Shown here: positions 1-17,788 of the stretch, one piece after another
Numbering within the stretch: the first letter of the stretch is position 1
Layout: each line of letters starts with the position of its first letter
NCBI GenBank assembly: GCA_049424145.1
Contig: JBMSSC010000048.1
Span: forward strand, 1 to 18,020
Origin: Bdellovibrionia bacterium
Lineage (GTDB): Bacteria > Bdellovibrionota > UBA1018
DNA length: 18,020 bases
Direction of reading: 5' to 3'
Position numbers and translations under genes: made by a program
The notes under the pieces: generated by a model
What the model saw: only the letters and a program-made list of their open reading frames with translations
What the model was told of the DNA's origin: nothing
Database searches by the model: none

Positions 1-333
1 TGAAATCGCCATCCAGGGAAGGGAGTCGTTGCCCCATGGTACGTCCATCTGCACGGGGTCAAACCTCTGGTCTTCCTGTTGATTTGAGGGATCAAGCGCC
101 TTAGTTTTTTGAAATAAAAACTGAAGCCTCGTTTGAGCCTGCTGAGGGTCTGAGGCTTGATCAATTAAATCATCACAGAATCGACACCAGCTGTAGAGCA
201 GAACGGCACCGAGCTGAATGCGCTTCCCAAAAAACCGGGAAGCAAAATAAAAACTCTTGGATCCTTTCTTCAGAATCTCTTGGGAAATCGCCTCTAATGC
301 CTTGAGGTCAAACGATTCTAACTGAGATTCCAC
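1..333 (-). CDS. crtB: Phytoene/squalene synthase family protein, N-terminal part (runs off the window edge; not in ORF track)
   Basis: Manual translation from GTG at 333: MESQLESFDLKALEAISQEILKKGSKSFYFASRFFGKRIQLGAVLLYSWCRFCDDLIDQASD... It contains the CrtB-type GSKSF..A and LYxWCRxCDDxxD (first Asp-rich) motifs. The start overlaps the end of fni by 16 nt. Confidence 0.9.
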   Translation of the reverse strand, partial: MESQLESFDLKALEAISQEILKKGSKSFYFASRFFGKRIQLGAVLLYSWCRFCDDLIDQASDPQQAQTRLQFLFQKTKALDPSNQQEDQRFDPVQMDVPWGNDSLPWMAIS

Positions 334-1358
334 TTTTTCTTTCTCAATGCCTCTAAGTTTTTACTCCCGGTGCAAAACAGGGCGACTTTGAGTTCAAACT
401 CCTGCTGAGCCATCCATTGATGAAGGGCTTGCTCCCCCTTTAAGGCTGCCATAAGAGCCGGCTTAGCGTAACCTATTCGATGGGACCCCAGAGCGATGAG
501 CTTGGCGGCATCCAAGCCACTGCGAACGCCACCTGAGGCCCAAATTTCTGTTTTCTCACGCAAAACCCCTTGAGCGGCAAGGACACTTTGCACGGTGGAT
601 TCCCCCCAGTGGGCAAACGTTTGAGCGGCCTGAGCCTGAAGGCTGTGCTCAGGGGCTCGAGCTCCCTCGATTCTTCCCCAATGAGTACCACCTAAACCAC
701 TGAGATCCACGGCACAGAGCTTCAGACGGGAGATGCGCTGGAGAGTTTTTTTTGAAAATCCACAACCCGTCTCCTTCAGAAGGATGGGAATCTTAAGACT
801 CTGAGTGAGTTTTTTTAATGCCGCAAAGCCTCCATGAAACTGGGGCGTCCCTTCTGGCTGAAGCACTTCTTGAAGGGCATTGAGGTGAATGGCTAGGGCA
901 TCGGCTCCTAAATCCGTCACCACACGCCGCACTTGGGAAACGGAGGCTTGAATCACTTGCGTGAGCCCGAGGTTTCCAATTAAGCCCAAGCGCGGAAACG
1001 AGCTTCGAAACGACTTCCATTCTTCTGAGGAGGACTCAAGATCACGCCGCTGAGAGCCGACTCCCATAACCCAACCGCGGGCCTCACAGACTTTCGCCAA
1101 AAGACGATTCATGGCCGGTGCATCGCCATGCCCAGCCGTCATGCCACACACGAAAAAAGGAGTTTGCAATTTTTTCCCTAAAAACTGGGACTGAATCGAG
1201 ACGTCCTGAAAATCCAACTCAGGCAGGGCTTCATGAACCAAATGAATTCGATCTAAACCGGAGGCTCCGAGGGCCTCGTTTTTCAGATCCAAGGAGTGTT
1301 GAATATGATCTGCTTTTCGTTTCTCAAACTGATCCAAATCCATGGGAGTTGCTCTCAA
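318..1358 (-). CDS. fni: Type 2 (FMN-dependent) isopentenyl-diphosphate delta-isomerase
   Basis: Motifs RKADHI, GMTAG, GVGSQR, GNLG, HLNALQEVLQPEG, KETGCG, GGTHW, SGGVRSGLDAAK. The TTG start overlaps the mvaD stop (TTGA, 1355-1358); alternative ATG at 1343. Confidence 0.95.
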   Translation of the reverse strand: MRATPMDLDQFEKRKADHIQHSLDLKNEALGASGLDRIHLVHEALPELDFQDVSIQSQFLGKKLQTPFFVCGMTAGHGDAPAMNRLLAKVCEARGWVMGVGSQRRDLESSSEEWKSFRSSFPRLGLIGNLGLTQVIQASVSQVRRVVTDLGADALAIHLNALQEVLQPEGTPQFHGGFAALKKLTQSLKIPILLKETGCGFSKKTLQRISRLKLCAVDLSGLGGTHWGRIEGARAPEHSLQAQAAQTFAHWGESTVQSVLAAQGVLREKTEIWASGGVRSGLDAAKLIALGSHRIGYAKPALMAALKGEQALHQWMAQQEFELKVALFCTGSKNLEALRKKKWNLS

Positions 1359-2458
1359 GTTTCAATCCAATCTGCTCCTAAACCCTGACGATCCTGAAGA
1401 ATCCGAAGCTCGGGGAACTGTCGTTCAATGCGATCCACCCACTGTGCGACCCTTGGGGTCTCCACTAAGAGATGAACATTGGGTCCCGCATCCAAGGTGA
1501 CAATGGGAGGGTGGGGGTCTTTTAAAAATGGGCTGAGCCACTTTAAAATGGCAAGGGTCATGGGCTCAAAATAGGTAAATGGCTCAGCACTGGTATGAAA
1601 CAAGCTATGCATCTCCCACATCTCAGACCAGGCTAACTGAGAGATCTGAGCGAGCTGGCCCTGCTGAAGCGCGTCGTTTAACTGCTGCACGCGATGCTGG
1701 GCACGTGAAATGCGATTGGACCAAAGAGGTGAAGAAAGGACTCGCTGATGAGCCTGCGACGAGGACACTTCTTTGGCGGAACTGGAAACTAAGAGGACCA
1801 GATCGGTCAGTTCAGGCAGAGATGCCGCAACGGAACTCACCTCGTTGTGATCCCAGAGGACCCACGGGCCTTCCAAGGACCGACAAGAACTGCCTGATCC
1901 CTGGCGGGAGAGATTGGCCAAAGCCCTCATGAAAGCACTTTTTTGTGAGCCGAGGGCTAAAAACTCCTTGGGCTCTTGCATGCAAGAGAGAACGGTGGCC
2001 AGGGTGAGCGCAGCAAAACTGGAAGCACTGGAGGCAATGCCTGAGGCGGTAGGAAATGTATTGGCCGATCGGAGGTGTAAGGGGCCAGGAGAAACGGCCT
2101 TCAATCCGAAGCGGGGCAAGAGAGTCTTTGCCTCCTGCTTGACCCGACTGAGATGATCCAGAACTTTCCTCGTGCCTGAGGCCGAAAGATCGGGCACTTG
2201 AAGAGTCAGGTGATCCAGTGGAGGAACTCCGCGCGGAAGCTCAGGAATGACGACGTCGGGGCCTTGGTTTTCAGAGGAGGCTGCCGACTGAGAAGAGTTC
2301 GAGGGGGACTGAACCTCTAGATCCACCCAAGTCGAGAGCTGACTGAGTGTCATTGACAAGCTTGGATTCGCAGGCAGATTAAGCGTGGAATCCGTCTTTC
2401 CCATGTACTTCACTAGGGCGATGTTCGAGGGGGCCGTCACTAGAAACCGTTTCCTCAA
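1355..2458 (-). CDS. mvaD: Diphosphomevalonate decarboxylase (GHMP family); start re-called at TTG 2458
   Basis: Motifs APSNIALVKYMGK, GIASSASSFAAL, SRQGSGSSCRS, DAGPNVH. TTG at 2458 has AAGGAG 6 nt upstream and gives a normal N-terminus (LRKRFLVTAPSN). The extra 80 codons in the ORF track (to 2698) show no recognisable homology. Confidence 0.93.
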   Translation of the reverse strand: MRKRFLVTAPSNIALVKYMGKTDSTLNLPANPSLSMTLSQLSTWVDLEVQSPSNSSQSAASSENQGPDVVIPELPRGVPPLDHLTLQVPDLSASGTRKVLDHLSRVKQEAKTLLPRFGLKAVSPGPLHLRSANTFPTASGIASSASSFAALTLATVLSCMQEPKEFLALGSQKSAFMRALANLSRQGSGSSCRSLEGPWVLWDHNEVSSVAASLPELTDLVLLVSSSAKEVSSSQAHQRVLSSPLWSNRISRAQHRVQQLNDALQQGQLAQISQLAWSEMWEMHSLFHTSAEPFTYFEPMTLAILKWLSPFLKDPHPPIVTLDAGPNVHLLVETPRVAQWVDRIERQFPELRILQDRQGLGADWIET

Positions 2459-2464
2459 GTCAAA

Positions 2465-2470
2465 CTCCTT
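2465..2470 (-). promoter_or_regulatory. Shine-Dalgarno sequence of mvaD
   Basis: Minus strand reads AAGGAG-tttgac-TTG. Confidence 0.8.
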
Positions 2471-2830
2471 TAGTTGCGGTACTCTTGTTTGGATACGCTT
2501 CTCTTCCTCACGAAAGAGGATTCCCCTATTCAGGCGATTCGTATCCGAATCGCTCCTAGACAGACTTCTAGGAGTTACAAGACAAGGGCTCTTAACCTCT
2601 ATCTCTTGCCAGCACTCAAATTGAGTAGGCCAGATTTTTGATCTCTCTTTTTCAGATTTTACACAAGCCAAGATGCTTTTCCATCTTGGAACCGTCAATC
2701 TGAATTTTCAGGGACAGACTGGTTCATTAGCACAACTCTGCGAGAAGGGGAACCCCGAACTCAAGTACGAGGTTTTAGGGCAAGTAAGATCCGAGTGATC
2801 ACACGCTTTGACCCTGTACCCCAAAACGCA
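2471..2830 (-). ncRNA. Candidate structured RNA / cis-regulatory leader upstream of mvaD-fni-crtB (no known family recognised)
   Basis: Consecutive inverted repeats: 2505-2509/2516-2520, 2534-2541/2546-2553 (8 bp), 2553-2560/2567-2574 (8 bp), 2577-2582/2604-2609, 2614-2618/2622-2626, and 2668-2675/2682-2689 (8 bp) nested in 2651-2658/2697-2704 (8 bp). Several stems extend only through G-U pairs on the minus strand. Confidence 0.45.
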
Positions 2831-2842
2831 AGACTGGGCCCG

Positions 2843-4786
2843 TTAAAGGACACTGGACATCATAAGTTGAGCAATCCGCTGAGAATACAAATGAGGATTC
2901 TCAATGGAAGACCCTTCATTGAGCAAAGCCTGTTGATAGAGGATCAACGACCACTCCTGAACTTTCTCAGAGGGCAAACTCAGCATCTTGTCATACAAAG
3001 GATGCTCAGGATTAATTTCAAGAATCCGTTTGGATTTGGGTAGACTCTGACCCATGGAGGCCATGAGCCGCTCCATGTGAGCGGAGGCGCCCTGATCCGA
3101 GGAAACCAAACAAACCGGGGAGTCCGTCAGACGATCGGAGACCTTAATCTCTTTGACCCATTGATCCAAGGAGGACTGCATGGATTCTAAAAGAGGCTTA
3201 AAACGCTCGGTGGCTTGTTCTCGCTTCTTTTGCTCCTCTTTTTTCTCTTCTTCAGTGGAGATATCTAGGTTTTCTTGGGTTGCGGATTGAAAGGACTTCC
3301 CATCAAACTGGCCCAGTCCCCCTGAAACCCAGGCATCCACGGAGTCACTCATGAGGAGAACTTCATACCCTTTGGCTTTCAGTTTTTCCAAATACGGGCT
3401 GTTTTTAATCTGCTCTAAAGAGTCCCCCGTGATGGTGTAGATGTCTTTTTGACCCGGCTTCATGCGTCCAACATACTCAGCAAGCGTGGTCCAGCCATCG
3501 GAGTGCGTGGAGTGAAAGAGGAGTAAATCCTTGAGCTTCTCAGAGGAGGAAGGCTCAAGCGGGATTCCCTCTTTTAAGGTGCACCCAAAGTTGGCCCAAA
3601 ACTTCTCATAGGAGGCACGATCCTGAGCGAGAAGATCTTTTAAGCTACTGAGGATTTTTGAGGTGAGAGCTTTTTTAATTCTGAGAATCTGACGATCCTG
3701 CTGGAGGATTTCTCGCGAGACATTCAAAGAGAGATCATCGCTATCCACCATTCCTTTGACAAATCTCAGGTAAGGAGGCAAGAGCTCCTCGCAATCAGCC
3801 TGAATAAAGACCCGCTTGACGTAGAGATTCAAACCGATTTTTCGATCCCGAAAATCATAGTTCAATGGCTTTTGTGAAGGCAGGTAGAGAATCGAACTAA
3901 ACTCCAAGGTTCCTTCCGCTTTATAGTGAATCGTCTTAAGGGGATTGGCCCAATCATGACTTAAATGCTTGTAGAAGTCCTGATACTCTTGCTCGGTGAT
4001 CTCGGAGGCTGCTCTGAGCCACAGGGCCTTTTGACTATTGAGGGTTTGATCCTCAATGACGGTTTCCTTTTGATCGCCTTGGCCTTTTTCTCGACTCACC
4101 TGCATGCGAATGGGATGAGCGACAAAGTCAGAGTACTTTCTCACGATCTCTTTGAGGGTCCATGAATCGGTGAAATCAGGATCCGACTCCTGAGACTCGG
4201 ACAACGCAGCATCGGCTGCCGCGTCAGCTCCCATGGGCTTCAGATGAAGCGTGATGGTGGTTCCATGCCCCTCAGCCCTAGGCTTCTCCTCAATCGTATA
4301 GGTCCCTTTTCCATCGGACTCCCAAAGAACACCCTGGGTGGCCCCTGCCTTTTGGGTGTGCAAGGTGACCCGATCGGCCACGATGAACGCGGAGTAAAAG
4401 CCCACGCCGAACTGACCAATGAGCTCCGGATGCTCTTTGAGCTCTTTTTTCATCTCAGGCAAACCGCGCTTGAGAAAAGCCTTGGTTCCTGAATGGGCGA
4501 TTGTCCCAATGTTTTCAATCACTTCGTCGCGAGTCATCCCAATGCCGTTGTCTGAGATCGCAAGCGTCCTCTGAGCGGAATCGGGACTCAGGCGAATCTC
4601 AAAACCTGAGGCAGGCAAGGGCAACTCGGAGTTCACGAGGCTTTCAAACTTGAGCTTCTCAATGGCATCTGAAGCATTGGAGATGAGCTCTCTTAAAAAG
4701 ATCTCTCGATTCGAATAAAGCGAGTGGATCATGAGCTCTAGGATTTCTTTTGATTCAGCTTGAAACGACTGGGTAACTTTCGACAT
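2843..4786 (-). CDS. htpG: Molecular chaperone HtpG (Hsp90)
   Basis: HSLYSNREIFLRELISNASDA, DNGIGMT, IAHSGT, IGQFGVGFYSAF, LNVSREILQ, ILEINPEHPL; full length 647 aa. Confidence 0.98.
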   Translation of the reverse strand: MSKVTQSFQAESKEILELMIHSLYSNREIFLRELISNASDAIEKLKFESLVNSELPLPASGFEIRLSPDSAQRTLAISDNGIGMTRDEVIENIGTIAHSGTKAFLKRGLPEMKKELKEHPELIGQFGVGFYSAFIVADRVTLHTQKAGATQGVLWESDGKGTYTIEEKPRAEGHGTTITLHLKPMGADAAADAALSESQESDPDFTDSWTLKEIVRKYSDFVAHPIRMQVSREKGQGDQKETVIEDQTLNSQKALWLRAASEITEQEYQDFYKHLSHDWANPLKTIHYKAEGTLEFSSILYLPSQKPLNYDFRDRKIGLNLYVKRVFIQADCEELLPPYLRFVKGMVDSDDLSLNVSREILQQDRQILRIKKALTSKILSSLKDLLAQDRASYEKFWANFGCTLKEGIPLEPSSSEKLKDLLLFHSTHSDGWTTLAEYVGRMKPGQKDIYTITGDSLEQIKNSPYLEKLKAKGYEVLLMSDSVDAWVSGGLGQFDGKSFQSATQENLDISTEEEKKEEQKKREQATERFKPLLESMQSSLDQWVKEIKVSDRLTDSPVCLVSSDQGASAHMERLMASMGQSLPKSKRILEINPEHPLYDKMLSLPSEKVQEWSLILYQQALLNEGSSIENPHLYSQRIAQLMMSSVL

Positions 4787-4854: not shown

Positions 4855-6573
4855 TCAAAAAAGCAAGCGAGAGGAGGAATGCACCGAGGAAACCCTAGAG
4901 CCGCCCCCCCTCCACGGAAGTGAGTTCGGCGGACAACACTCGCTCTCGGTCTCACTTTTGCCCATCCCCAGTTGCCCCAAACAGGCCAGCTCCAAGAGAA
5001 CACGAGAGAAACACGACACCACCCGGCGGAGCAGTAAAAACTCAGAAATCCCAATGGAGCGATTCACCAAAAACTCCGGACAGCACATGCGCCGCTCCAC
5101 CTCGGAGAGCACCTGGCCTGCGCCCAAACACGTGGGTTCACAATTTCGACCGGCACGAAGCTCGTTCCAGGCCAAAAGAAAGTGGTTCTTAAGGCGAGCC
5201 AGATCGGACCCAAAAACATCCTGCACCGTTCTGCGTTGATTTTCAGGGGCCAGTGAAATCATCTCATGCAGCTCCCAAAGTTCATGCACCACTTTCTCAA
5301 ATCGATCCATGACTCCGAGTCTCGACCAGCAGGAAAGGGAGTGCTGATTTTTTTGGCTCACCGCTAGGTTGGCCAAAAGCTCCTCAAGCACCCGAAAACG
5401 TCCGGAGAACTCGATTCGGAGCAACTGAATTTGTCCTGGCTGATGAACACTCTCAATGGCTTGAAATAGATCATGGGTCAGGACCTTCGCTTCACTCAAT
5501 AAAGTTCCTTGCCGCCGATTCGTTTCCTCAAAGGCACGAGCCGGAAGGTTCATGAGCATTTTTCGAACCACAGCGGGCATCCACACCTGAGCTGCGTTGT
5601 CTTTTTCCGGGAGTAAAACATGAAGGACTTTAACTAAAAAGGGCATCAGAATGGACCAAATCAACAAGTTGAGCGCATTGTAAACGCTATGAACGGCCGC
5701 CAACTGATGGCCGGGATGGAGTGTGAGGTGAAAAAATGACAGGAGCGGTGAAGTGATCAGTGCCACCACCGAGAGAAACGTCTTAAATAAAAGCAACGAC
5801 ATGAGCGCCCCCACGGATTTGATGAGAAAATGCCCGAGCGCTAGCCGCTTGACTTCAGAGCGATACCCGAGAGAAAAAATCAGGCCTGTGATCGACGTGC
5901 CCACGTTGGCTCCTAAAATCATGGCTGTTGCCGCGTAAACACTCAGTGAACCGCCATTGGCTAAACCAATGATCAAAAAGACCACGGTACTGCTAGACTG
6001 AACTAAGAGCGTGAGAAAGAAACCTATACCCAGAAAAAAAAGAAGGTGAAAAAACGACCCTCCATTTAAGAAAGACCTAGGCCCCCAGTTGGTCTGCACG
6101 GAGGTGAGCTGATCTAAGGCCTCTCCCATGAAATTCCAACTGACAAAAATTAAGCCCACCGCCAAGATTAACTCCAAGCTCTTTCGAGCCACGCGTCTTC
6201 GGTAAAAAGTCATCAAAACACTCGAGAGCACGATGAGCCCGGGACCAATGAACTTCGGATTACTGGCAAAAAACCAGGCTTTCAGCGTACTGCCAAAGGC
6301 TGCCCCTAAGCTCAGTAAAAGCCCATGCTCCAACGTGATCCAGCCGCGACCTAAAAACCCCATCGCACTGACAATGGTCAGACTACTTGCCTGAAGCAAG
6401 ACCGTTAGCCCCACTCCCGCCCCAATGGGTTTTAAAAACCCCTGCCCCACCCATCGGACAGTGGGCTCAATGTGCGCGGAAACCGCCTCATCGATCGCCT
6501 GAGTCAATAACCTTAAAGAGAAGAAAAACAGCCCCACTCCTGCCAGCGCATTGAACGCTTGAATTCCCGTCAT
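4855..6573 (-). CDS. Na+/phosphate cotransporter family protein (NptA/YjbB, SLC34-like)
   Basis: Multiple TM segments, two repeat motifs LQASS and VQSSS, ILGANVGTSIT, AAVHSVYNALN, and a soluble helical (PhoU-like) C-terminal region. The start overlaps the upstream stop (ATGA, 6570-6573). Confidence 0.9.
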   Translation of the reverse strand: MTGIQAFNALAGVGLFFFSLRLLTQAIDEAVSAHIEPTVRWVGQGFLKPIGAGVGLTVLLQASSLTIVSAMGFLGRGWITLEHGLLLSLGAAFGSTLKAWFFASNPKFIGPGLIVLSSVLMTFYRRRVARKSLELILAVGLIFVSWNFMGEALDQLTSVQTNWGPRSFLNGGSFFHLLFFLGIGFFLTLLVQSSSTVVFLIIGLANGGSLSVYAATAMILGANVGTSITGLIFSLGYRSEVKRLALGHFLIKSVGALMSLLLFKTFLSVVALITSPLLSFFHLTLHPGHQLAAVHSVYNALNLLIWSILMPFLVKVLHVLLPEKDNAAQVWMPAVVRKMLMNLPARAFEETNRRQGTLLSEAKVLTHDLFQAIESVHQPGQIQLLRIEFSGRFRVLEELLANLAVSQKNQHSLSCWSRLGVMDRFEKVVHELWELHEMISLAPENQRRTVQDVFGSDLARLKNHFLLAWNELRAGRNCEPTCLGAGQVLSEVERRMCCPEFLVNRSIGISEFLLLRRVVSCFSRVLLELACLGQLGMGKSETESECCPPNSLPWRGGGSRVSSVHSSSRLLF

Positions 6574-8207
6574 TCAGCCTCATCCTCATACCAATGCTCC
6601 CCGCGGGGAAACACCGCATCCAATCGAACAATTCCAGACTTATTGAGCACCAAACGCAAATGCTCAATCTGAGTCGTTTTCTTCCTAGGTTGATCCAATC
6701 CTTGGTCCCAGGCGCTCATCCTTAAAAAGAGGTTAAAGTAGTAAACCTTTGGGGCTCGAATCTGAATCGCACCTTCCTCAAAATCATAGATAGCGAGACT
6801 TTTCTCAGGGTTATCCAAGTACTGAAGAAACCCTCCCATATTAAAACGAAAAATATCCTTCAAAGAGAGCAACTCCGTTTCCATCTGAGAGGAGACGGTA
6901 GGATTTAAGGCAACTCGTTTTGAGTAGTGAATGATGTTCTCCTGATTTTCCCCAAACAAGTCCTCAGCTTGAGTTAAGTCCCGCACAAATCGAATGTCCT
7001 CAGGCAAGCTCTCACTGGAGAGGTATCGAACGGTTTCCTGATATTTTCCCACGCGAAGGTCCTGCTTTTTCCCTAAGCGATCAAAAAACGGATAGGTCAA
7101 TAAAACCTCATAATCGGGCAGAAATCCTTTCAGCTTCTCGTTAAAGTACTCTTTACTGATTTCTTTGATTCGATCCTTAAAGACGTAAATTAAAACCCCC
7201 ACGGAGGCCAGCACCATAAAGCGAACCCCAAAATCTCGTGCGCCCCGAGCCAACTGCGAATCCATTTTGGCAACCTCAGCCCACACGCCGGCTAAGGCGG
7301 CTCCAAAGCCCGCCATCATATTGCGATAAAGCCGATCCCGCTTGACCTCTTGAGTTTTGAGATAAAGGCTCTCTGAGACGAATTTCTTTAACATCCCATG
7401 GCGATGATAAAACTGCTCGAGGTTTCGATCCGTCGCAGCCCTCCCTGGGGTGACGTACCCCCGCTCGGCTCGATGCTGGTACTCGTTGGACAAAAAACGC
7501 CGAGCAAAACTCGAACGCGGGGAGGAAACCTGAGACAAAGAGATTTTGGAAAAACTCACCTCCAAGCGATTGGAGAGGTACTCATCTACCCAAAGCAAAG
7601 CGGAGGCCAAATCCGAGTCAAGCGCAATGCTCTGAAGCGAGGGCTTGAGGTAGCGCATCCGAAAATGTTCAACCAACTCGATGATCTCCGAGCCTTGAAT
7701 GACCCACTGATCATCGCTCAACGCGGGCTTATGATTGAACCAAGTTTTTAATCTCAGGTTCACATAATTGGCAAAAATCTTCACCTCCTGAATGGCACGA
7801 TGAGTCTGTTCGGGAAAAAACGGCTGACTCTGATCCAGCACCAGGAGGTTCTCCAAGGTGGGTAAAATGGCCGCATGAATGAGGTCTTTTTTAGGCGTAT
7901 GAATACGAACCAGGTTGGTCAGGTCTTGATAGAAGGACTCTCGTGGATAGACTTGAGAATTAAGGCCCAGGTTTTTTGGAGTAAAGAAATAAAAATCCAC
8001 CCAGTACGACATCTCAGATTTTTGTTCCCTTCGGCCTGATCCCTGTTCAGAGCGAACCTGAGGAACCTGATAATCGATGACGATTTCAAACTGACTTTGA
8101 TCATGAACACTGGCTTGCCACTGAACAGGATTTTGGTTCTCCACACGGTGAGAGGATCGATCCAGCATGATCCCCTCAATTTGCCCTGAGTTTGAAAACA
8201 AGTCCAC
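6570..8207 (-). CDS. Hypothetical membrane protein: large soluble N-domain, two TM helices, soluble C-domain
   Basis: 545-aa ORF inside an operon with coupled stop/start. Hydrophobic pair MMAGFGAALAGVWA and FMVLASVGVLIYVF followed by KDRIKE. Start uncertain (GTG 8207, ATG 8168 or GTG 8144). Confidence 0.85.
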   Translation of the reverse strand: MDLFSNSGQIEGIMLDRSSHRVENQNPVQWQASVHDQSQFEIVIDYQVPQVRSEQGSGRREQKSEMSYWVDFYFFTPKNLGLNSQVYPRESFYQDLTNLVRIHTPKKDLIHAAILPTLENLLVLDQSQPFFPEQTHRAIQEVKIFANYVNLRLKTWFNHKPALSDDQWVIQGSEIIELVEHFRMRYLKPSLQSIALDSDLASALLWVDEYLSNRLEVSFSKISLSQVSSPRSSFARRFLSNEYQHRAERGYVTPGRAATDRNLEQFYHRHGMLKKFVSESLYLKTQEVKRDRLYRNMMAGFGAALAGVWAEVAKMDSQLARGARDFGVRFMVLASVGVLIYVFKDRIKEISKEYFNEKLKGFLPDYEVLLTYPFFDRLGKKQDLRVGKYQETVRYLSSESLPEDIRFVRDLTQAEDLFGENQENIIHYSKRVALNPTVSSQMETELLSLKDIFRFNMGGFLQYLDNPEKSLAIYDFEEGAIQIRAPKVYYFNLFLRMSAWDQGLDQPRKKTTQIEHLRLVLNKSGIVRLDAVFPRGEHWYEDEAE

Positions 8208-8273
8208 CCGAGGATGGAATCGAAAGGAAAGTTAAATTGGAATTTTCTGAAAACTGAATGCCCCGTCAAAGAC

Positions 8274-9263
8274 TTAGATTGAGCGGATCACCCACAAGGT
8301 CAAAGCAGAAATAGCGGCAGCGGCAGGAATGGTTAAAATCCAGGCCCAGATAATTCGTGAGGCAATGCCCCAGCGAATCGTATGAGGAGAGTAAACACTG
8401 CCGGCACCCACGATGGCCCCCGTAATGGTGTGAGTGGTGGAAACAGGAATCCCAAGCCCCGTGGCTAAAAACAAGGTCATGGCTCCGGCCGTCTCAGCAC
8501 TGAATCCTCCAATCGGCTTCAGCTTTGTGATCTTAAGCCCCATGGTCTTCACAATCTTCCACCCTCCCATCAGGGTACCTAAGCCCATGGCCGTCTGACA
8601 AAGCAGAATGACCCAAAAAGGAACATGAAACTGAGGCCCCAGATAACCGGCTGAGAAAAGAAGGATCGCAATGATTCCCATCGTTTTTTGAGCATCATTG
8701 CCGCCATGCCCCAGGCTGTACAGGGCTGCCGAGAAAAACTGAAGGCGCCTAAACCACTTATCCACTAATCGCGGCGCAAGGTTCTTACAAATTTGCGCCG
8801 TCAGCACCGAAAGAAGACTCGCTAGGATCAAGCCTAAAAAAGGAGATAAGACGATGGAAACTAAAACCTTGAGTAACCCCTCATACTGAAGCGCACTGGA
8901 GCCGGCTCGCACCAAAACCGATCCCACCAGTCCGCCCACTAAGGCATGGGAGGAGCTCGAAGGTAAGGCAAAGTACCAAGTCACCAGATTCCAAGCGATG
9001 GCCCCAAATAGAGAAGAAAAGATCACCGCAGGACTGACCATCGCAGGATCCACTAAACCTCGCCCGATGGTGTTGGCCACTCGGGTTTCAAAAAATAAAA
9101 AGGCGATGAAATTGAAGGCCGCTGCCCAAATCACAGCATGCTGGGGCTTTAAAACGCGGGTTGAAACAATGGTTGCAATCGAGTTCGCCGCGTCATGGAA
9201 GCCATTAATAAAATCAAAAATGAGGGCCAGTAAGATAATAACAACTAGGGCATAAAGGTCCAT
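8274..9263 (-). CDS. pit: Inorganic phosphate transporter, PiT family (short form)
   Basis: Signature motifs GFHDAANSIAT, LPSSSSHALVGG, HGGNDAQKTMG, GIPVSTTHTITGAIVG; SD GAGGGG upstream. Confidence 0.95.
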   Translation of the reverse strand: MDLYALVVIILLALIFDFINGFHDAANSIATIVSTRVLKPQHAVIWAAAFNFIAFLFFETRVANTIGRGLVDPAMVSPAVIFSSLFGAIAWNLVTWYFALPSSSSHALVGGLVGSVLVRAGSSALQYEGLLKVLVSIVLSPFLGLILASLLSVLTAQICKNLAPRLVDKWFRRLQFFSAALYSLGHGGNDAQKTMGIIAILLFSAGYLGPQFHVPFWVILLCQTAMGLGTLMGGWKIVKTMGLKITKLKPIGGFSAETAGAMTLFLATGLGIPVSTTHTITGAIVGAGSVYSPHTIRWGIASRIIWAWILTIPAAAAISALTLWVIRSI

Positions 9264-9278
9264 GAATCTCCCCTCGGA

Positions 9279-9923
9279 TCAAGCGTATTCAAGAACGATG
9301 ACTTCGATTCGATTGGCAATCTCAACACAGCAGGAGATGAGTTGATTAAAAGTCGAGACTAAGTCCCGGTACTTCATCATCAGCTTGACGTCATCTGTTT
9401 CAAATAGATCCACTGAGATTTTCCTCAAAAGGACACGAGCCCGGTATTTTACTTGATGGATCTGAGCACAGATTTGAACTAGAGGATCCGGTTCTTTGAT
9501 TTTTCTCAACCCCGGAATGGCGCTCGAGACTAAATTCACCTGCTCGTTCACGAGCTGAGCCAATTCCAGAAGAACCGCCATCTGATTCTTTGAACTGGGA
9601 ACCTCTTTGGAAAGCCGGTAATCGGCCACAAAGCAGGTGAGCTGAGCTAATAACTCAACTCCTTTGGCCATTTTAAAAACCAAAGTGTGAATGTCATTTC
9701 TCTCAAACGGAGTGATGAACGTCTTGTGCAAGTACTCCAAAATCGTGTGGGTGATCTGATCTGCCTGAATTTCAACTTCAGAAAGTGCCATGGCTTTTGC
9801 CGAAGCCTCTGCGGGATGCTCCATGGAGGAGAGCATCATGGCCGAAGCTTGAGACAAAAGGTCGGCCATTTGATCAAATCGATCAAAATACTTCTCTTCT
9901 TTTGGCAGAATACTTTTTAACAT
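9279..9923 (-). CDS. DUF47 / PhoU-like Pit accessory protein
   Basis: ILPKEEKYFDRF, EIQADQITH, LHKTFITPFERNDI and the C-terminal ANRIEVIVLEYA are typical of DUF47; located immediately upstream of pit; SD AAGGA. Confidence 0.9.
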   Translation of the reverse strand: MLKSILPKEEKYFDRFDQMADLLSQASAMMLSSMEHPAEASAKAMALSEVEIQADQITHTILEYLHKTFITPFERNDIHTLVFKMAKGVELLAQLTCFVADYRLSKEVPSSKNQMAVLLELAQLVNEQVNLVSSAIPGLRKIKEPDPLVQICAQIHQVKYRARVLLRKISVDLFETDDVKLMMKYRDLVSTFNQLISCCVEIANRIEVIVLEYA

Positions 9924-13086: not shown

Positions 13087-14874
13087 TTATTTTTTCTCCT
13101 GGGGCTTTTGCTTCAGCCATTCAATGGCTTGGATCAGAGCGGAGTCCATGGATCCATCCTCTTTTCTTTGTTTCCTCAGTCGTTCGTGACCTTGAATTCC
13201 CTGGCCCTCCACCTTAATGTCTTTCACCGGTGTATGAATGTCGTTGCCTGGATAGCGAATTTCGTAGGTTCCCGACTCCATCTTGAAATTCTCAGTATAG
13301 AGTCCTTGAGCCGCTCCTGGAGTGCTGCCGAAGACTCGGACGGCTGAGGGGTATAGAGGGCTTTCTGAAGCAGTCTGTCCTGCTCTGAGCTCATCATACT
13401 CCATCGGAGCTGCTGCACAGACCTCCGCTGCACAGAAGGAGTCCTTCACTAAAAAAGCAATTTTTCCTCGAAACGGTGTAATGGCCCCCAGGGTTTGACC
13501 TATTCCTGGAACCCTTTGTCCTGGCGAGGGAACTCTGATGGTATCTCTTAATTCCGGTTTCTCAAGCGGCAGGCTTTTGATCTTATAGATTCCTTCTTCA
13601 ATCTGAGTCTTGACTTCATCGAGGGAGGTCATGATGGGTAAGAATGGACTCAGCGCCTGCTGAAGGCCCTGTGGAAGATTTACCTTGCCTGAGGGCTGAT
13701 CCCGATGACAATCAATTGGGGGACATTTCTCAGTCAACAGGGACTCCTTGAGTTGATCAATCTTGGATTGACTCGCTAAAAATAGATTTCGTATTCGCTC
13801 TTGTAAGGCCGGAAATCGGAATAAGCCTTTGATCAATTCATTCTGATCCCTGGCCAGCCTGATGAAGTCGCCCTGAAGGGCTTGCTGCAAATTTCGGCAC
13901 TCACTGGGGAACGTCAGGACTCCATTAAGACGACTGACCACATCATGAAGGCGCAACACATAGCGATCCATGGCTTCATGGACCTTAGGTTCAGTCAAGT
14001 ACCCAGCAACTATGGTTTTCTCAAGCTCGTGAGCTTTGCCTACCTCATGAATGATGGGGGTTCCCTCCTTCAACAAGAAGCTTAAGAAATGATCGGGTCT
14101 TCCGCCAGGATTGCCGCGCAGGTCAACCACAACGTCTTTTTGCTTTTTTATTGCAAGCAAGAAAGCTTCCGCGACAATCTCCGGACGATACTCCCCCTCA
14201 AATGAGGGTACAGAGAGTCGAATCACTTGGCTTCCTTGGTAATCAATCTCCTGAAAGCTGGGTGCATAAATAACGCTCCGGCTCTTGCATTTAATATCCA
14301 TCTCCTCAGTTTCCCCGTTGAGTTTTCGCACGTGCACTCGGACGCTCTGTCCATCGGCGCACCCCTGAAACTCGGAGAAGGGTCTTCCGTTGACCGCCAG
14401 GATTTGATCGCCACGACCAATTCCATTTTCTGACAAACCTGAGTTTGGAAATAAAATTCGAATCTTTTCAACGTCATGACCCGAGGGATCAGGTTTGGTA
14501 TGGACTCCAAGCATACCCGGTTTTGCTTCGATCTCAAGTGAACCACTGGGCTCTAAGGGAGGCCGTTTTTGGATCGCAAGATGACTTAAATTCATCTCTT
14601 TGAGGACCTGACTGAGGATTTCAATCACTTGATCCGGGTTTTGCTGGATCCTCCTTTGAGTTTCAGGCGACCTTTTTTGAAAGAGTTGAAAAGCCGATCG
14701 GTAGGATTCCGGAGCACTGCTTCGATTTAAGGCCTTCTCTAAAGTATTTGAAACCTTTTGATAAATCATTGCAGCTTCTTCATCTTTTACCTGAGAGTCC
14801 GCAAATAAATAGGGAGTCAAAGCCACCCCAAAAAGGACATAGGATGTCAGTGTCTGAAAGAATGGACGTCTCAT
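13087..14874 (-). CDS. Secreted PDZ-containing S41-family (tail-specific protease-like) protein with atypical active site; start re-called at ATG 14874
   Basis: Signal peptide MRRPFFQTLTSYVLFGVALTPYLFA with GGAG upstream; LSHL; PDZ (GMLGV...GIGRGDQILAVNG); DLRGNPGG; SFCAAE; VFGSTPGA; VEGQGI. Confidence 0.85.
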   Translation of the reverse strand: MRRPFFQTLTSYVLFGVALTPYLFADSQVKDEEAAMIYQKVSNTLEKALNRSSAPESYRSAFQLFQKRSPETQRRIQQNPDQVIEILSQVLKEMNLSHLAIQKRPPLEPSGSLEIEAKPGMLGVHTKPDPSGHDVEKIRILFPNSGLSENGIGRGDQILAVNGRPFSEFQGCADGQSVRVHVRKLNGETEEMDIKCKSRSVIYAPSFQEIDYQGSQVIRLSVPSFEGEYRPEIVAEAFLLAIKKQKDVVVDLRGNPGGRPDHFLSFLLKEGTPIIHEVGKAHELEKTIVAGYLTEPKVHEAMDRYVLRLHDVVSRLNGVLTFPSECRNLQQALQGDFIRLARDQNELIKGLFRFPALQERIRNLFLASQSKIDQLKESLLTEKCPPIDCHRDQPSGKVNLPQGLQQALSPFLPIMTSLDEVKTQIEEGIYKIKSLPLEKPELRDTIRVPSPGQRVPGIGQTLGAITPFRGKIAFLVKDSFCAAEVCAAAPMEYDELRAGQTASESPLYPSAVRVFGSTPGAAQGLYTENFKMESGTYEIRYPGNDIHTPVKDIKVEGQGIQGHERLRKQRKEDGSMDSALIQAIEWLKQKPQEKK

Positions 14875-15616
14875 ACGGATCAACTCCAGAGAATTCGGAA
14901 AAAATGCGATGATTCGATGGAACCTCAAGCGTTCTACTGAGGGATCGGTAAGTTTTAGGTAAATATTAATGACCCCTACAAATCTTAATTAATTCTCAGT
15001 GAACATCAGATAGCGCTGAAATGATTGATAGATTGAATCGGTTAAGAATAATTAAAATTTGGCGCATCTAAAATCCGAAGTGAGTCTGTTAGAATCTCAC
15101 GACCCTAGTTGAAAAAGATAAGGCTTAGATGACTCAGATTCAATCCATACTCAGTTCCGTGCAGCAGCTCCGGGGAAGTATTGGAGGCGTCCTATCGCCT
15201 CAGGCTCAAGGGTCCAAGCAGGCATTCATTCAGTTTTGGATTCCGATGAGAGCCCTTGGGAGCGAGGTTAAACGGTTTGCCACTTGAGGTTTTGAGAGGT
15301 TAAAAGCTCAGTCAAGCGCTCCACACCCGATTGCCTATCAAAAAGATCGCGGAGGGGAGCGTGGCAAAGAGCTCGACCCACTTCACCGTGAATCGCCTAA
15401 TCGAAACAAAAACCAGCCTGACTCAGAGCGCAAAGACTGCAGATTGATTCTTCAAAGACCTATGAGGCAGAATCAGATCGGCCTCAAGCAACCTGGAAAA
15501 TCACCCAGAAATTGCTTTGTAAGCGACTCAATGCACAAACGATTCAATCTCTTCTTTGGAATCCCGATACGTCTTTAGGAACACTCTCCCCAGAAGAGGG
15601 AGAAAGGGATCAATCA

Positions 15617-16078
15617 ATGAAGAAAAAATCCATGACCGCTACACCCGTCCTGGAGACTCCACCCTATCGAAACCACACTCTGCTCATCGTCGATGATGAC
15701 GCTCTGCTACGAGGGGCTCTGGCGTTTGACTTCAAACGCAAAGGCTTTTGTGTGATTGCAGTAGAGAGCGGAAAAAAGGCCTTGGAAGTTCTTAAAACCA
15801 CGCCTGTTGATCTCATTCTTGCGGACCTGCGCATGTCCAACGGAGATGGAGGCTACCTCCTCACTCAATTAAAAAAGAGGAAAGAAGCACACCCTCCCCT
15901 CATTCTCCTCTCAGGCTTACTCGAGCTCAATCCCGAGGAATACATTCATCAAGGGGCATTGGCCGTATTTGAAAAACCGTTTTGCCGGCGAAAGCTTTTA
16001 AAACTCATCCTGAACACGTTAGAGGGTTCCCCTTGCTCGGAGCAAAGGCCTCAGACCCAGAATCAGGTGCTAGCATGA
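15617..16078 (+). CDS. Single-domain response regulator (REC only); start re-called at ATG 15617 (or 15632)
   Basis: LIVDDD, ILADLRM (phospho-Asp), LLSG, FEKPF; no output domain; AAGGGA upstream of 15617. Confidence 0.9.
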   Translation: MKKKSMTATPVLETPPYRNHTLLIVDDDALLRGALAFDFKRKGFCVIAVESGKKALEVLKTTPVDLILADLRMSNGDGGYLLTQLKKRKEAHPPLILLSGLLELNPEEYIHQGALAVFEKPFCRRKLLKLILNTLEGSPCSEQRPQTQNQVLA

Positions 16079-16308
16079 TGGACAACGAGGAGAAGAAATT
16101 TTTACATCAAATGGCAAGCCCCATTGCTGCAGCTCTCCTCCTGATGGACATTCTCATGGAGGACATCCAGAAGGAGCCTCAGGCTCAAGCTCGCCTAAAC
16201 CCGCCACTTGAGCAGCTTCATGAAGTCTTGCAAAAGGTCAAAAGCTCCCTGGAGGAAAGAAGAAAAACACTCATGCAAACCCCCCCCTTAGGAATGCCTA
16301 AGGCCTAG
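16075..16308 (+). CDS. 77-aa helical protein with an H-box-like motif (stand-alone HisKA/DHp-like domain); start re-called at 16075
   Basis: ATG 16075 overlaps the REC stop (ATGA). Sequence MMDNEEKKFLHQMASPIAAALLLMDILMEDIQKE...LEQLHEVLQKVKSSLEE resembles the H-box H-[DE]-x-x-[NST]-P-[LI] followed by a two-helix hairpin. Confidence 0.7.
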   Translation: MMDNEEKKFLHQMASPIAAALLLMDILMEDIQKEPQAQARLNPPLEQLHEVLQKVKSSLEERRKTLMQTPPLGMPKA

Positions 16309-16327
16309 AGAAAAGAGGTGAAATGCT

Positions 16328-17788
16328 ATGAATGCCCCTTCACCGTCTAATCCATTGAGAAGTTCTCCCGCAGGAGAGCTTCAAACCTCAAATGAAAAAC
16401 ACCACATCCTGCTGGTAGAGGATGATGATTTCTTTCGTTCCGCACTGAGTCAAACCTTAGCGGATGCAGGATTTCACATCACCTCGGTGCCTCATGCCAA
16501 ACATGCGCAAGAGGTCTTGGGGGACCAGCCCGTTCACCTCGTCTTATCCGACATTAACTTGCCTGGGATCAATGGCTTTGAGCTTTTGAAGAACCATCAG
16601 AGCGTCAAACCCAACATCCCCTTCATCTTGATGAGTGGGTTTTCCGAGTTAACCGACTCTGAGGAGGCCAACCAACTGGGTGCCAAGGCGGTTTTATCCA
16701 AGCCCTTTAGAAAAGAGGACCTCCTTCAAACCATCGATCAAGCCCTGTTTCCGCTGACGTCTCATGATACGCCCAACTTAGACTTTCAATTCAGTAAAGT
16801 GAAACTGCAGGAGTTTGTCTCCGGTCAGAACAGTCGCTTCCCGCTCTTCATTCGATTATCGGAGAGCAAATACATTAAAATTGCACACGCCGGGGACACC
16901 CTCCCCCCTGAGCGCCTGAAGGCTTATGCGGCCAAAGGAGTTCAGTACCTGTATCTAAAAAAGGAAGATTTTAAAAAGTACATGGAGATGAATCTTTCCC
17001 TCCTCCCCTTGGTGAGTGCCCAAAAGCAGTTTCCCAAGGAAAAAAAGATCGCCTTTCTTAAGCATTCAAGCGAAGTCATCTTAGAGCACCTCTATTTTAA
17101 CGAAGTGAAGCCTCAAAGCTTTAAAGACGCTCAAGCCCTGGTGGAGGGCACCTTAAATCTCCTTCAGGGGCCCAATTCAGAGTCCAACCCACTCTCCGAT
17201 GAGGCGTTCAACCTGCTTCCCCTCTTAAACGCGCACAGCGATCACCTCTACACGCACGCCTTAGGCGTGAGTCTCTACAGCGTGATGATTGCGCGGGAAC
17301 TCACCTGGAAATCCGAACAAACCCTCACCAAGCTTGCCCTAGGCGGACTCCTGCACGACATTGGAAAAAAAGAGCTCCCCCCGCAGCTTCTCAAAAAAGC
17401 TCGCCGTGAGTTTTCCGCCCAGGAACTGGAACTTTACGAATCTCACCCCCAACGCGGTGTGGAGCTACTCAGTCAAATCCCAAGCGTCCCCAGCGACGTT
17501 ATCCAAATCATTGCTCAGCACCATGAAAACTGCCTAGGCCTGGGATTTCCGCTTCGACTCAAACGGCATCACATTCACCCTCTGGCTCGCATCGTGGCCA
17601 TTGCAAACGAGTTTTGTAATGGGGTTCTCAAAGAACCCCTCCGCCAGCAACTCTCGCCGCAGCAGGCCATCCTTCGCATGCACACGATCCAGCCCGGCCG
17701 ATTTGACCCGGACTTCCTTGCAGCCTTAGCTCAACTCTTTGGACTCACCCTGCCCACTGAAACGAGCTCTTCGCGAGAGCGGGCTTGA
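16328..17788 (+). CDS. Response regulator with N-terminal REC and C-terminal HD-GYP-type domain (variant motifs)
   Basis: REC: LLVEDDD, VLSDINLP, LMSG, LSKPF. HD domain: YTHALGV, LLHDIGK, HPQRG, QHHE, GLGFP, ARIVAIANEF. SD AGAGGTG. Confidence 0.92.
   Translation: MNAPSPSNPLRSSPAGELQTSNEKHHILLVEDDDFFRSALSQTLADAGFHITSVPHAKHAQEVLGDQPVHLVLSDINLPGINGFELLKNHQSVKPNIPFILMSGFSELTDSEEANQLGAKAVLSKPFRKEDLLQTIDQALFPLTSHDTPNLDFQFSKVKLQEFVSGQNSRFPLFIRLSESKYIKIAHAGDTLPPERLKAYAAKGVQYLYLKKEDFKKYMEMNLSLLPLVSAQKQFPKEKKIAFLKHSSEVILEHLYFNEVKPQSFKDAQALVEGTLNLLQGPNSESNPLSDEAFNLLPLLNAHSDHLYTHALGVSLYSVMIARELTWKSEQTLTKLALGGLLHDIGKKELPPQLLKKARREFSAQELELYESHPQRGVELLSQIPSVPSDVIQIIAQHHENCLGLGFPLRLKRHHIHPLARIVAIANEFCNGVLKEPLRQQLSPQQAILRMHTIQPGRFDPDFLAALAQLFGLTLPTETSSSRERA

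Follow-up and report, generated by a model that had tools for sequence, protein, structure and literature searches.

Positions 15617-17788 of an 18,020-nucleotide stretch of DNA from a Bdellovibrionia bacterium (contig JBMSSC010000048.1 of assembly GCA_049424145.1; the whole stretch is called the window below) carry three consecutive genes, which encode a single-domain receiver (REC1), a 77-aa helical hairpin of the dimerization and histidine phosphotransfer (DHp) type, and a second receiver (REC2) joined to an HD-domain output (the REC-HD protein). We found that the 77-aa protein, hereafter the hairpin, belongs to a conserved family of stand-alone DHp proteins found across Bdellovibrionota, and is no decayed kinase. 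The gene and its family share a conserved His and HisKA ancestry and lack an ATP-binding domain; the family is linked and in places fused to REC1, and the phosphorylation sites of both receivers of the window are intact. Judging from these sequence features, we slightly favor the reading that the hairpin is a minimal His phosphotransferase through which phosphate would pass from a kinase to REC1, then to the hairpin, and finally to the REC-HD protein.

Re-reading of the sequence bore out the layout given in the original prediction, an earlier reading of the window made from its letters: the REC1 stop overlaps the hairpin ATG as ATGA (16075-16078), the His11 codon lies where it had been placed, and the gap between the hairpin gene and the third gene is 19 nt (Table 1). 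That reading had also held that the mechanical list of open reading frames (ORFs) mis-starts the small protein, and the list does begin this frame at TTG 15982, giving 108 aa. Because relatives mostly start 7-20 residues ahead of the His, ATG 16075 or 16078 is the right start; a public protein collection has the protein in its 77-aa form. The hairpin carries FLHQMASPI and has a stop directly after 77 aa, without a sensor or ATP-binding domain, as had been claimed. Pfam searches detected REC in the REC1 protein (E 1e-17) and REC (1e-23) plus HD_5 (4e-32) in the third protein; the 77-mer alone gave no meaningful Pfam match, no HisKA match, and nothing in NCBIfam. Both receivers keep the acidic pair, the phospho-Asp, the Ser and the KPF Lys, the phospho-Asp and Lys having been pointed out before, and these residues are conserved in the alignments of each receiver. 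REC1 represents a distinct receiver subfamily, whose members elsewhere stand alone or are joined to PilZ or to a hairpin, and it was the sole match in the source genome at E<=1e-40 to the profile of this subfamily. The hairpin is present in one copy in that genome. A scan of the operon for promoters and terminators stayed at the level of shuffled sequence (2 promoter-like sites vs. 1.4 in shuffles).

Used alone as the query, the hairpin protein had matches at E<=0.01 in 25 of the 115 other genomes from the same taxonomic order, and His11, Arg62 and Arg63 were invariant in the resulting 26 sequences (the window and 25 relatives); a word-indexed search with the same 77-aa protein returned only itself. 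The profile built from these 26 sequences retrieved 674 representatives at E<=1e-3, and 278 at E<=1e-10, among 1.84 billion. The best 150 family matches were 62-195 aa long (median 78), with 142 of them at or below 110 aa, and they end 4-35 residues (median ~12) after the Arg pair of helix 2. The His was present in all 150 and in 78 of 79 genomic members, figures that may be inflated by ranking matches with a His-containing profile and that include kin that are not independent. Other positions were retained nearly as often in the best 150, namely Glu6 (144), Phe9 (147), Pro16 (142), Arg62 (147) and Arg63 (146). A wider profile matched 40 of 116 genomes of the order at E<=1e-6, with 44 matches in total: 41 ORFs of no more than 164 aa, two full kinases, and one fusion. 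Homologues of the hairpin are nearly all short stand-alone proteins with a conserved His and not full-length kinases, two of the points on which the original prediction had turned.

In a sample of the phylum, matches at E<=1e-3 came from 188 of 401 genomes; weak matches to full kinases are counted among them. Among 34 named records, titles were mostly those of Bdellovibrionota (Bdellovibrionales, Bacteriovoracaceae, Oligoflexus); one read only 'bacterium' and one Sulfitobacter. The hairpin in the latter record (L150) is closest to the Bacteriovoracaceae type, and its title is probably a labelling discrepancy. Members include proteins of Bdellovibrio bacteriovorus HD100 (CAE79853.1/Q6MLK4), Halobacteriovorax marinus and Bacteriovorax sp. 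PP10, which scored E 4e-11 to 6e-20 in a 20-protein search with a profile built without them; the accessions of Bd2002 and Bd2005 bracket that of Q6MLK4, from which we infer that it is Bd2004. The family is unnamed in the Pfam and NCBIfam libraries, and its public members are nearly all titled 'hypothetical' or 'uncharacterized'. The nearest ESM Atlas clusters, which serve as leads only, contain proteins of 69-89 aa from Bdellovibrionota, Planctomycetota, Thermomicrobiota and Pseudomonadota. A comparison of the family alignment with 7,995 candidates of 173-2000 aa gave no match at E<=1e-3; this search was weak and missed known fusions.

The origin of the hairpin in HisKA is apparent from the family as a whole. 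Pfam HisKA (PF00512) was matched at E<=0.01 by 48 of 148 members (best 1.1e-7), the other 100 not reaching this value, and hhalign aligned the family profile with the DHp of neighbouring kinases over 55 columns (probability 92%, E 6.5e-7). In a quick tree based on 69 columns, for which the careful search is unfinished, 76 hairpins stood apart from 48 of 49 kinases (SH-aLRT, an approximate likelihood-ratio support value, of 100). The tree and the similarity to HisKA point to one old family rather than to repeated decay. It had to be considered that the hairpins are kinase fragments that decayed repeatedly, or a spurious ORF, since the protein of the window by itself has no Pfam HisKA or NCBIfam match and since one full kinase (L192:3187-4578, plus strand, 464 aa) has a His region that resembles the family profile (E 1.2e-9) and is placed, on a long branch, among the hairpins. 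However, the uniform short length of the 150 representatives, the 41 short frames among the 44 order matches, the family-specific conserved residues and the single group in the tree have already largely refuted this idea, and we regard it as barely credible. The L192 kinase is possibly a parent type or a recombinant.

AlphaFold2, run with 148 sequences, modelled the hairpin as two helices (residues 2-31 and 35-68; mean pLDDT, its per-residue confidence, 91.8). It would likely dimerize into a four-helix bundle. Fold searches with the hairpin returned generic helical hairpins and bundles with no discrimination, and PDB sequence searches with two hairpin alignments gave nothing under E 0.1. Complex prediction for two hairpins plus REC2, run without controls, gave scores of 0.27 and 0.26, below the mark of 0.32. 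A 142-aa protein from a 1.4-kb contig (P0013), which bears on a dimer only indirectly, is a tandem hairpin duplication in which both halves match the profile and the first copy lacks the His. Its single-sequence model has four helices (pTM, the predicted template modelling score, 0.78) and resembles a one-chain bundle with one His; a fold search with this tandem form gave generic helical bundles. A 153-aa protein (P0123) resembles P0013, with a first half that scores poorly.

We examined the neighbourhoods of all 44 order matches and of 37 hand-picked loci outside the order. Dropping the two full kinases left 42 hairpin loci of the order, with the window and the fusion included and several near contig ends. 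A receiver gene lay within 350 bp of the hairpin in 33 of these 42 loci, a kinase domain within 4 kb in 22, and an HD protein within 4 kb in 16. The proposed tie of the hairpin to receiver genes therefore held, with receivers of the REC1 subfamily, stand-alone or PilZ-fused, as its most regular partners. Conservation of the three-gene order, which the original prediction had also raised, did not hold generally: both receiver types directly flank the hairpin in 7 of the 42 loci, and 3 loci besides the window have the same order. In L059 and L061 the genes run kinase, REC1, hairpin, REC-HD; L066 has REC1-PilZ in the place of REC1, L067 and L074 show the reverse order, and REC-HD is divergent in L065. 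Two fusions join the hairpin to REC1 in one chain. The first, L194:4089-4712 (minus strand), is an in-frame gene for 208 aa on a 23-kb contig, where its neighbours are another receiver and a divergent REC-HD gene; the second, P0120, encodes 195 aa on a 981-bp contig. We did not count the co-occurrence of REC1 and hairpin in genomes as support, because the REC1 profile came from hairpin neighbours and the argument would be circular.

The sole HATPase_c match on the contig of the window is in a 647-aa ORF (2843-4786), and therefore the operon has no kinase on this contig. The label 'kinase-less' is correct in this respect, but it does not describe the system, as shown by the 22 order loci with a kinase within 4 kb, L059 and L061 among them. 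The source genome has 21 HATPase_c, 26 REC, 4 Hpt and 3 GGDEF matches. The neighbouring kinases of hairpin loci belong mostly to one subfamily, and for 18 of 25 tested, the best match in the source genome was a kinase truncated where contig C45 ends, which is likely the donor for the system in the window. A BLUF blue-light sensor gene (E 4e-26; L211:696-1217, minus strand) follows this candidate kinase gene on C45.

Dimerization and binding of the hairpin, phosphate transfer and its direction are what we infer beyond the gene content. A kinase of the hairpin-associated subfamily, here most likely the C45 one, would phosphorylate REC1 at D70, phosphorylated REC1 would hand the phosphate to His11 of the hairpin, and His11 would pass it on to D75 of the REC-HD protein. 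The transfer probably runs both ways, so that the hairpin could also drain phosphate.

The residues beside the His bear on which reactions the hairpin might perform. In the HisKA motif H-E/D-x-x-T/N, the acid is needed only for autokinase activity and the T/N only for phosphatase activity, according to excerpts of PMC3510030. Of the best 150 hairpins, 127 have Asp and 6 have Glu directly after the His (H+1); at H+4, 69 carry Thr/Asn, 70 Ser and 11 Gly, with Ser in the protein of the window. Among 79 hairpins, H+1 is acidic in 63 and H+4 is Thr/Asn in 48, compared with 38 and 35, respectively, of 39 neighbouring kinases (5 of 44 failed to align). The His is thus kept more tightly than H+1 or H+4, and this fits a role of the His as a phosphate carrier between receivers. 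Gln at H+1, which had been taken as a sign that the protein of the window is not an autokinase, proved to be a local variant found in 3 of 79 members; as a mark of the family it was rejected, since H+1 is mostly Asp.

Several observations weigh against the proposed relay. Acidic H+1 residues persist in 80% and Thr/Asn at H+4 in 61% of the 79 hairpins, so that a phosphatase or trans-phosphorylation role is conceivable. Outside the order, a receiver was within 350 bp in 5 of the 37 loci, a kinase within 4 kb in 8 and an HD protein within 4 kb in 2; in named Bacteriovorax records, the hairpin gene mostly has no signalling neighbour. In L062, L068, L069, L073 and L108, the order is kinase, hairpin, REC1-PilZ, with one receiver only, and two of the genomes with this layout (G042 and G038, 96% and 95% complete) gave no full-length orthologue in a search with the REC-HD protein. 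No hairpin was detected at E<=1e-6 in 10 of 30 genomes with a REC1-type gene, some of which are incomplete. Q6MLK4 was absent from the supplement files searched, part of each set, of the proteomics papers PMC12546842 and PMC10627809. The possible inflation of the His count belongs here as well, as do two peculiarities of the window copy, which has Lys7 and Gln12 where the consensus has Arg and Asp and a branch of 1.0 in the quick tree vs. 0.12-0.69 in its nearest relatives.

Some of these points would suit a protein dedicated to removing phosphate from REC1-type receivers, as a phosphatase or a sink, in which case a hairpin dimer docks the phosphorylated receiver, speeds hydrolysis and shortens the kinase signal. 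Excerpts of PMC3510030 indicate that NtrB and EnvZ have DHp domains that, when isolated, suffice for phosphatase activity, layouts of kinase, hairpin and one receiver are common, REC1 occurs without a detected hairpin, and Thr/Asn occupies H+4 in 69 of 150 and 48 of 79 hairpins. We nevertheless consider this alternative unlikely: H+4 is Ser or Gly in the remaining 81 (70 and 11) of those 150 matches, and Ser in the window, although every one of them has the His, and the loci flanked by both receiver types, together with the REC1-hairpin fusions, suit a relay better.

The hairpin might instead be a partner of the kinase, either trans-phosphorylated by the ATP-binding domain of a kinase, in the manner of a split kinase, or serving as a decoy, by pairing with the DHp of the kinase or by masking receivers. 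The acidic H+1 of 133 of 150 members is what autophosphorylation requires, the hairpin profile matches the DHp of the adjacent kinases, and the hairpin gene often comes right after a kinase gene (directly so in L062, L068, L069, L073, L108, L109 and L207). However, the neighbouring kinases that were read around their DHp have their own His, save one assembly-gap fragment and one hybrid kinase whose His lies outside the stretch displayed, and they therefore have no need of an outside acceptor. The only frame seen with just the catalytic and ATP-binding (CA) domain, in L066, starts in ambiguous bases and has the look of an assembly gap. In addition, H+1 is non-acidic in 16 of 79 hairpins, and a near-invariant His would be superfluous in a pure decoy. 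Altogether, we judge a partnership with the kinase to be quite improbable. The hairpins share with split kinases such as Rhodobacter CheA3/CheA4 a His-bearing part that is encoded apart from the ATP-binding part, but a split kinase was also rejected, as no His-less partner kinase was found beside the hairpins.

The family might also be functional while the window copy decays after loss of a cluster kinase. Its Lys7 and Gln12, its longer branch and the missing kinase on the contig would agree with such decay. On the other hand, the frame is intact and overlaps the REC1 stop, Glu6, Phe9, His11, Pro16, Arg62 and Arg63 are retained, both receivers are intact, Gln at H+1 recurs in 3 of 79 members, and a kinase of the associated subfamily is present in the genome. 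We find decay of this copy very improbable, and the relay through REC1 and the hairpin to REC-HD remains the reading that we favor.

The third protein had been described as REC-HD-GYP. Its REC and HD domains are present, but the HD-GYP domain is degenerate. In PDB, the part after REC2 is closest to Bd1817 of B. bacteriovorus (3TM8, E 8e-13) over the N-terminal and HD domains, and Bd1817 has been reported to be without detectable activity; the third protein differs in having a receiver in front. It keeps the metal-binding residues H310, HD 343-344, H373 and HH 398-399 (HHE 398-400). Active HD-GYP proteins have the motif HHExh(D/N)GxGYP, as well as the substrate-binding motifs KPG and RxxK/R, according to excerpts of bioRxiv 10.1101/2021.11.05.467447. 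In the third protein, Leu is found at the D/N position and GFP (406-408) stands for GYP, and, compared with a canonical HD-GYP protein of the same genome (C46), it has no KPG and has Glu for the Arg of RxxK/R. Asn427 and Cys430 replace two Asp after the GYP region, and Asn is found at the position of N265 in Bd1817, which Asp occupies in most HD-GYP proteins. The majority of these changes recur in its relatives. By this comparison, the protein lacks HD-GYP residues for catalysis on and binding of cyclic di-GMP (c-di-GMP), and hydrolysis is unsupported; its action probably rests on binding of a partner or nucleotide and not on c-di-GMP hydrolysis. The proposal that the relay feeds cyclic-dinucleotide signalling is therefore unsupported for this Bd1817-like output. 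If there is a link to c-di-GMP, the PilZ-fused receivers of relatives are its likelier route; their motifs are kept in some copies only.

The closest known counterparts of the hairpin are the dimeric pseudo-kinase His phosphotransferases Spo0B of Bacillus subtilis and ChpT of Caulobacter and Brucella, which likewise have a DHp-type His domain and no working ATP-binding domain. By analogy, the hairpin would occupy their place between two receivers, and the gene order of L059 and L061 resembles such a relay (kinase, single REC, His protein, REC-output). ChpT has a Pro five residues after its His (PMC9981736, excerpts), as do 142 of 150 hairpins. In contrast, ChpT keeps a degenerate CA-like domain (same excerpts), which the hairpin family lacks, and Spo0B is described as a degenerated kinase (PMC5898713, excerpts) with a C-terminal domain that is absent from hairpins. 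The Pfam families of Spo0B and ChpT were not among the 22 families matched by 148 members at E<=0.01. Lacking such a C-terminal domain, the hairpins are not members of the Spo0B or ChpT families, but would work like these proteins if the relay holds. A P2CS-based category, 'phosphotransfer protein, stand-alone HisKA', comprises HisKA proteins without REC or HATPase (PMC4618731 and PMC3018481, excerpts); in those excerpts it is a computational bin in which no function was tested, and its HisKA criterion would miss the protein of the window, which has no HisKA match. The isolated DHp domains of EnvZ and NtrB are the same domain, but they are engineered fragments, whereas hairpins are natural genes with the T/N residue in about half to 60%. 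A literature search that covered few subscription papers revealed neither a characterized hairpin-only protein nor any reference to Q6MLK4, CAE79853 or Bd2002-Bd2004.

The characterized phosphotransferases of the DHp type are pseudo-kinases in which a dead ATP-binding domain is still present, and a hairpin-only carrier, if true, would show that this domain is dispensable. Relays would then be going unnoticed, because two thirds of hairpins do not reach E 0.01 against Pfam HisKA. If the hairpin is instead a phosphatase or decoy, it is still an unannotated two-component regulator found across a phylum, and the member in the genetically tractable predator B. bacteriovorus HD100 makes the question testable there. 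Our most far-reaching reading, which we consider somewhat less likely than not, is that Bdellovibrionota possess an old, dedicated family of DHp-only His phosphotransferases of 70-90 residues, which would be a third carrier architecture beside HPt domains and the pseudo-kinases Spo0B and ChpT. Lineages with orphan genes, including B. bacteriovorus HD100 with Q6MLK4, would use the hairpin as a ChpT-like hub for scattered receivers, and the REC-hairpin fusions and the one-His tandem duplication would be steps toward single-chain, HPt-like bundles.

Table 1. Genes and sites of the operon in the window, and the candidate donor kinase of the same genome.
Feature	Position	Strand	Description
REC1 gene	15617-16078	+	Single-domain receiver, 153 aa; D70, S99, K120
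Hairpin gene (stand-alone, HisKA-derived DHp)	16075-16308	+	77 aa; start at ATG 16075 or 16078
His11 codon, predicted phospho-acceptor	16105-16107	+	His conserved in the hairpin family
Arg62-Arg63 codons	16258-16263	+	Conserved pair, specific to the family, where helix 2 ends
Gene for REC2, Bd1817-like N-terminal domain and degenerate HD-GYP	16328-17788	+	486 aa; D75, S103, K125
Candidate donor kinase	contig C45 17678-18349 (L211:1678-2349)	-	Cut by contig end; associated kinase subfamily

Two other settings of hairpin genes were observed. In 17 of the family f22 loci examined (L081, L084-L086, L089-L094, L096-L098, L106, L107, L111 and L117), the hairpin gene is downstream of lon and has no receiver gene nearby; an acyl-CoA synthetase gene often separates it from lon. 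In family f25 (L087, L110, L115 and L118), it lies inside a cluster resembling one for quinone biosynthesis, with genes for a thioesterase, an AMP-binding protein, OSBS, UbiA and a polyprenyl synthase.

The rest of the window holds an isoprenoid cluster (1-2698, minus strand) that encodes diphosphomevalonate decarboxylase, an FMN_dh-family protein, presumably a type 2 isopentenyl diphosphate isomerase, and a squalene/phytoene synthase cut by the start of the window. A phosphate-uptake cluster (4855-9923, minus strand) encodes a DUF47 protein, a PHO4-family transporter, a 545-aa protein (6570-8207, minus strand) without a Pfam match at 1e-5, and a Na+/Pi cotransporter. Finally, a gene for a 613-aa protein (13087-14928, minus strand), with weak PDZ and S41-peptidase matches below the cut-off, is divergent from the operon, and ~690 bp of non-coding DNA lie between them.

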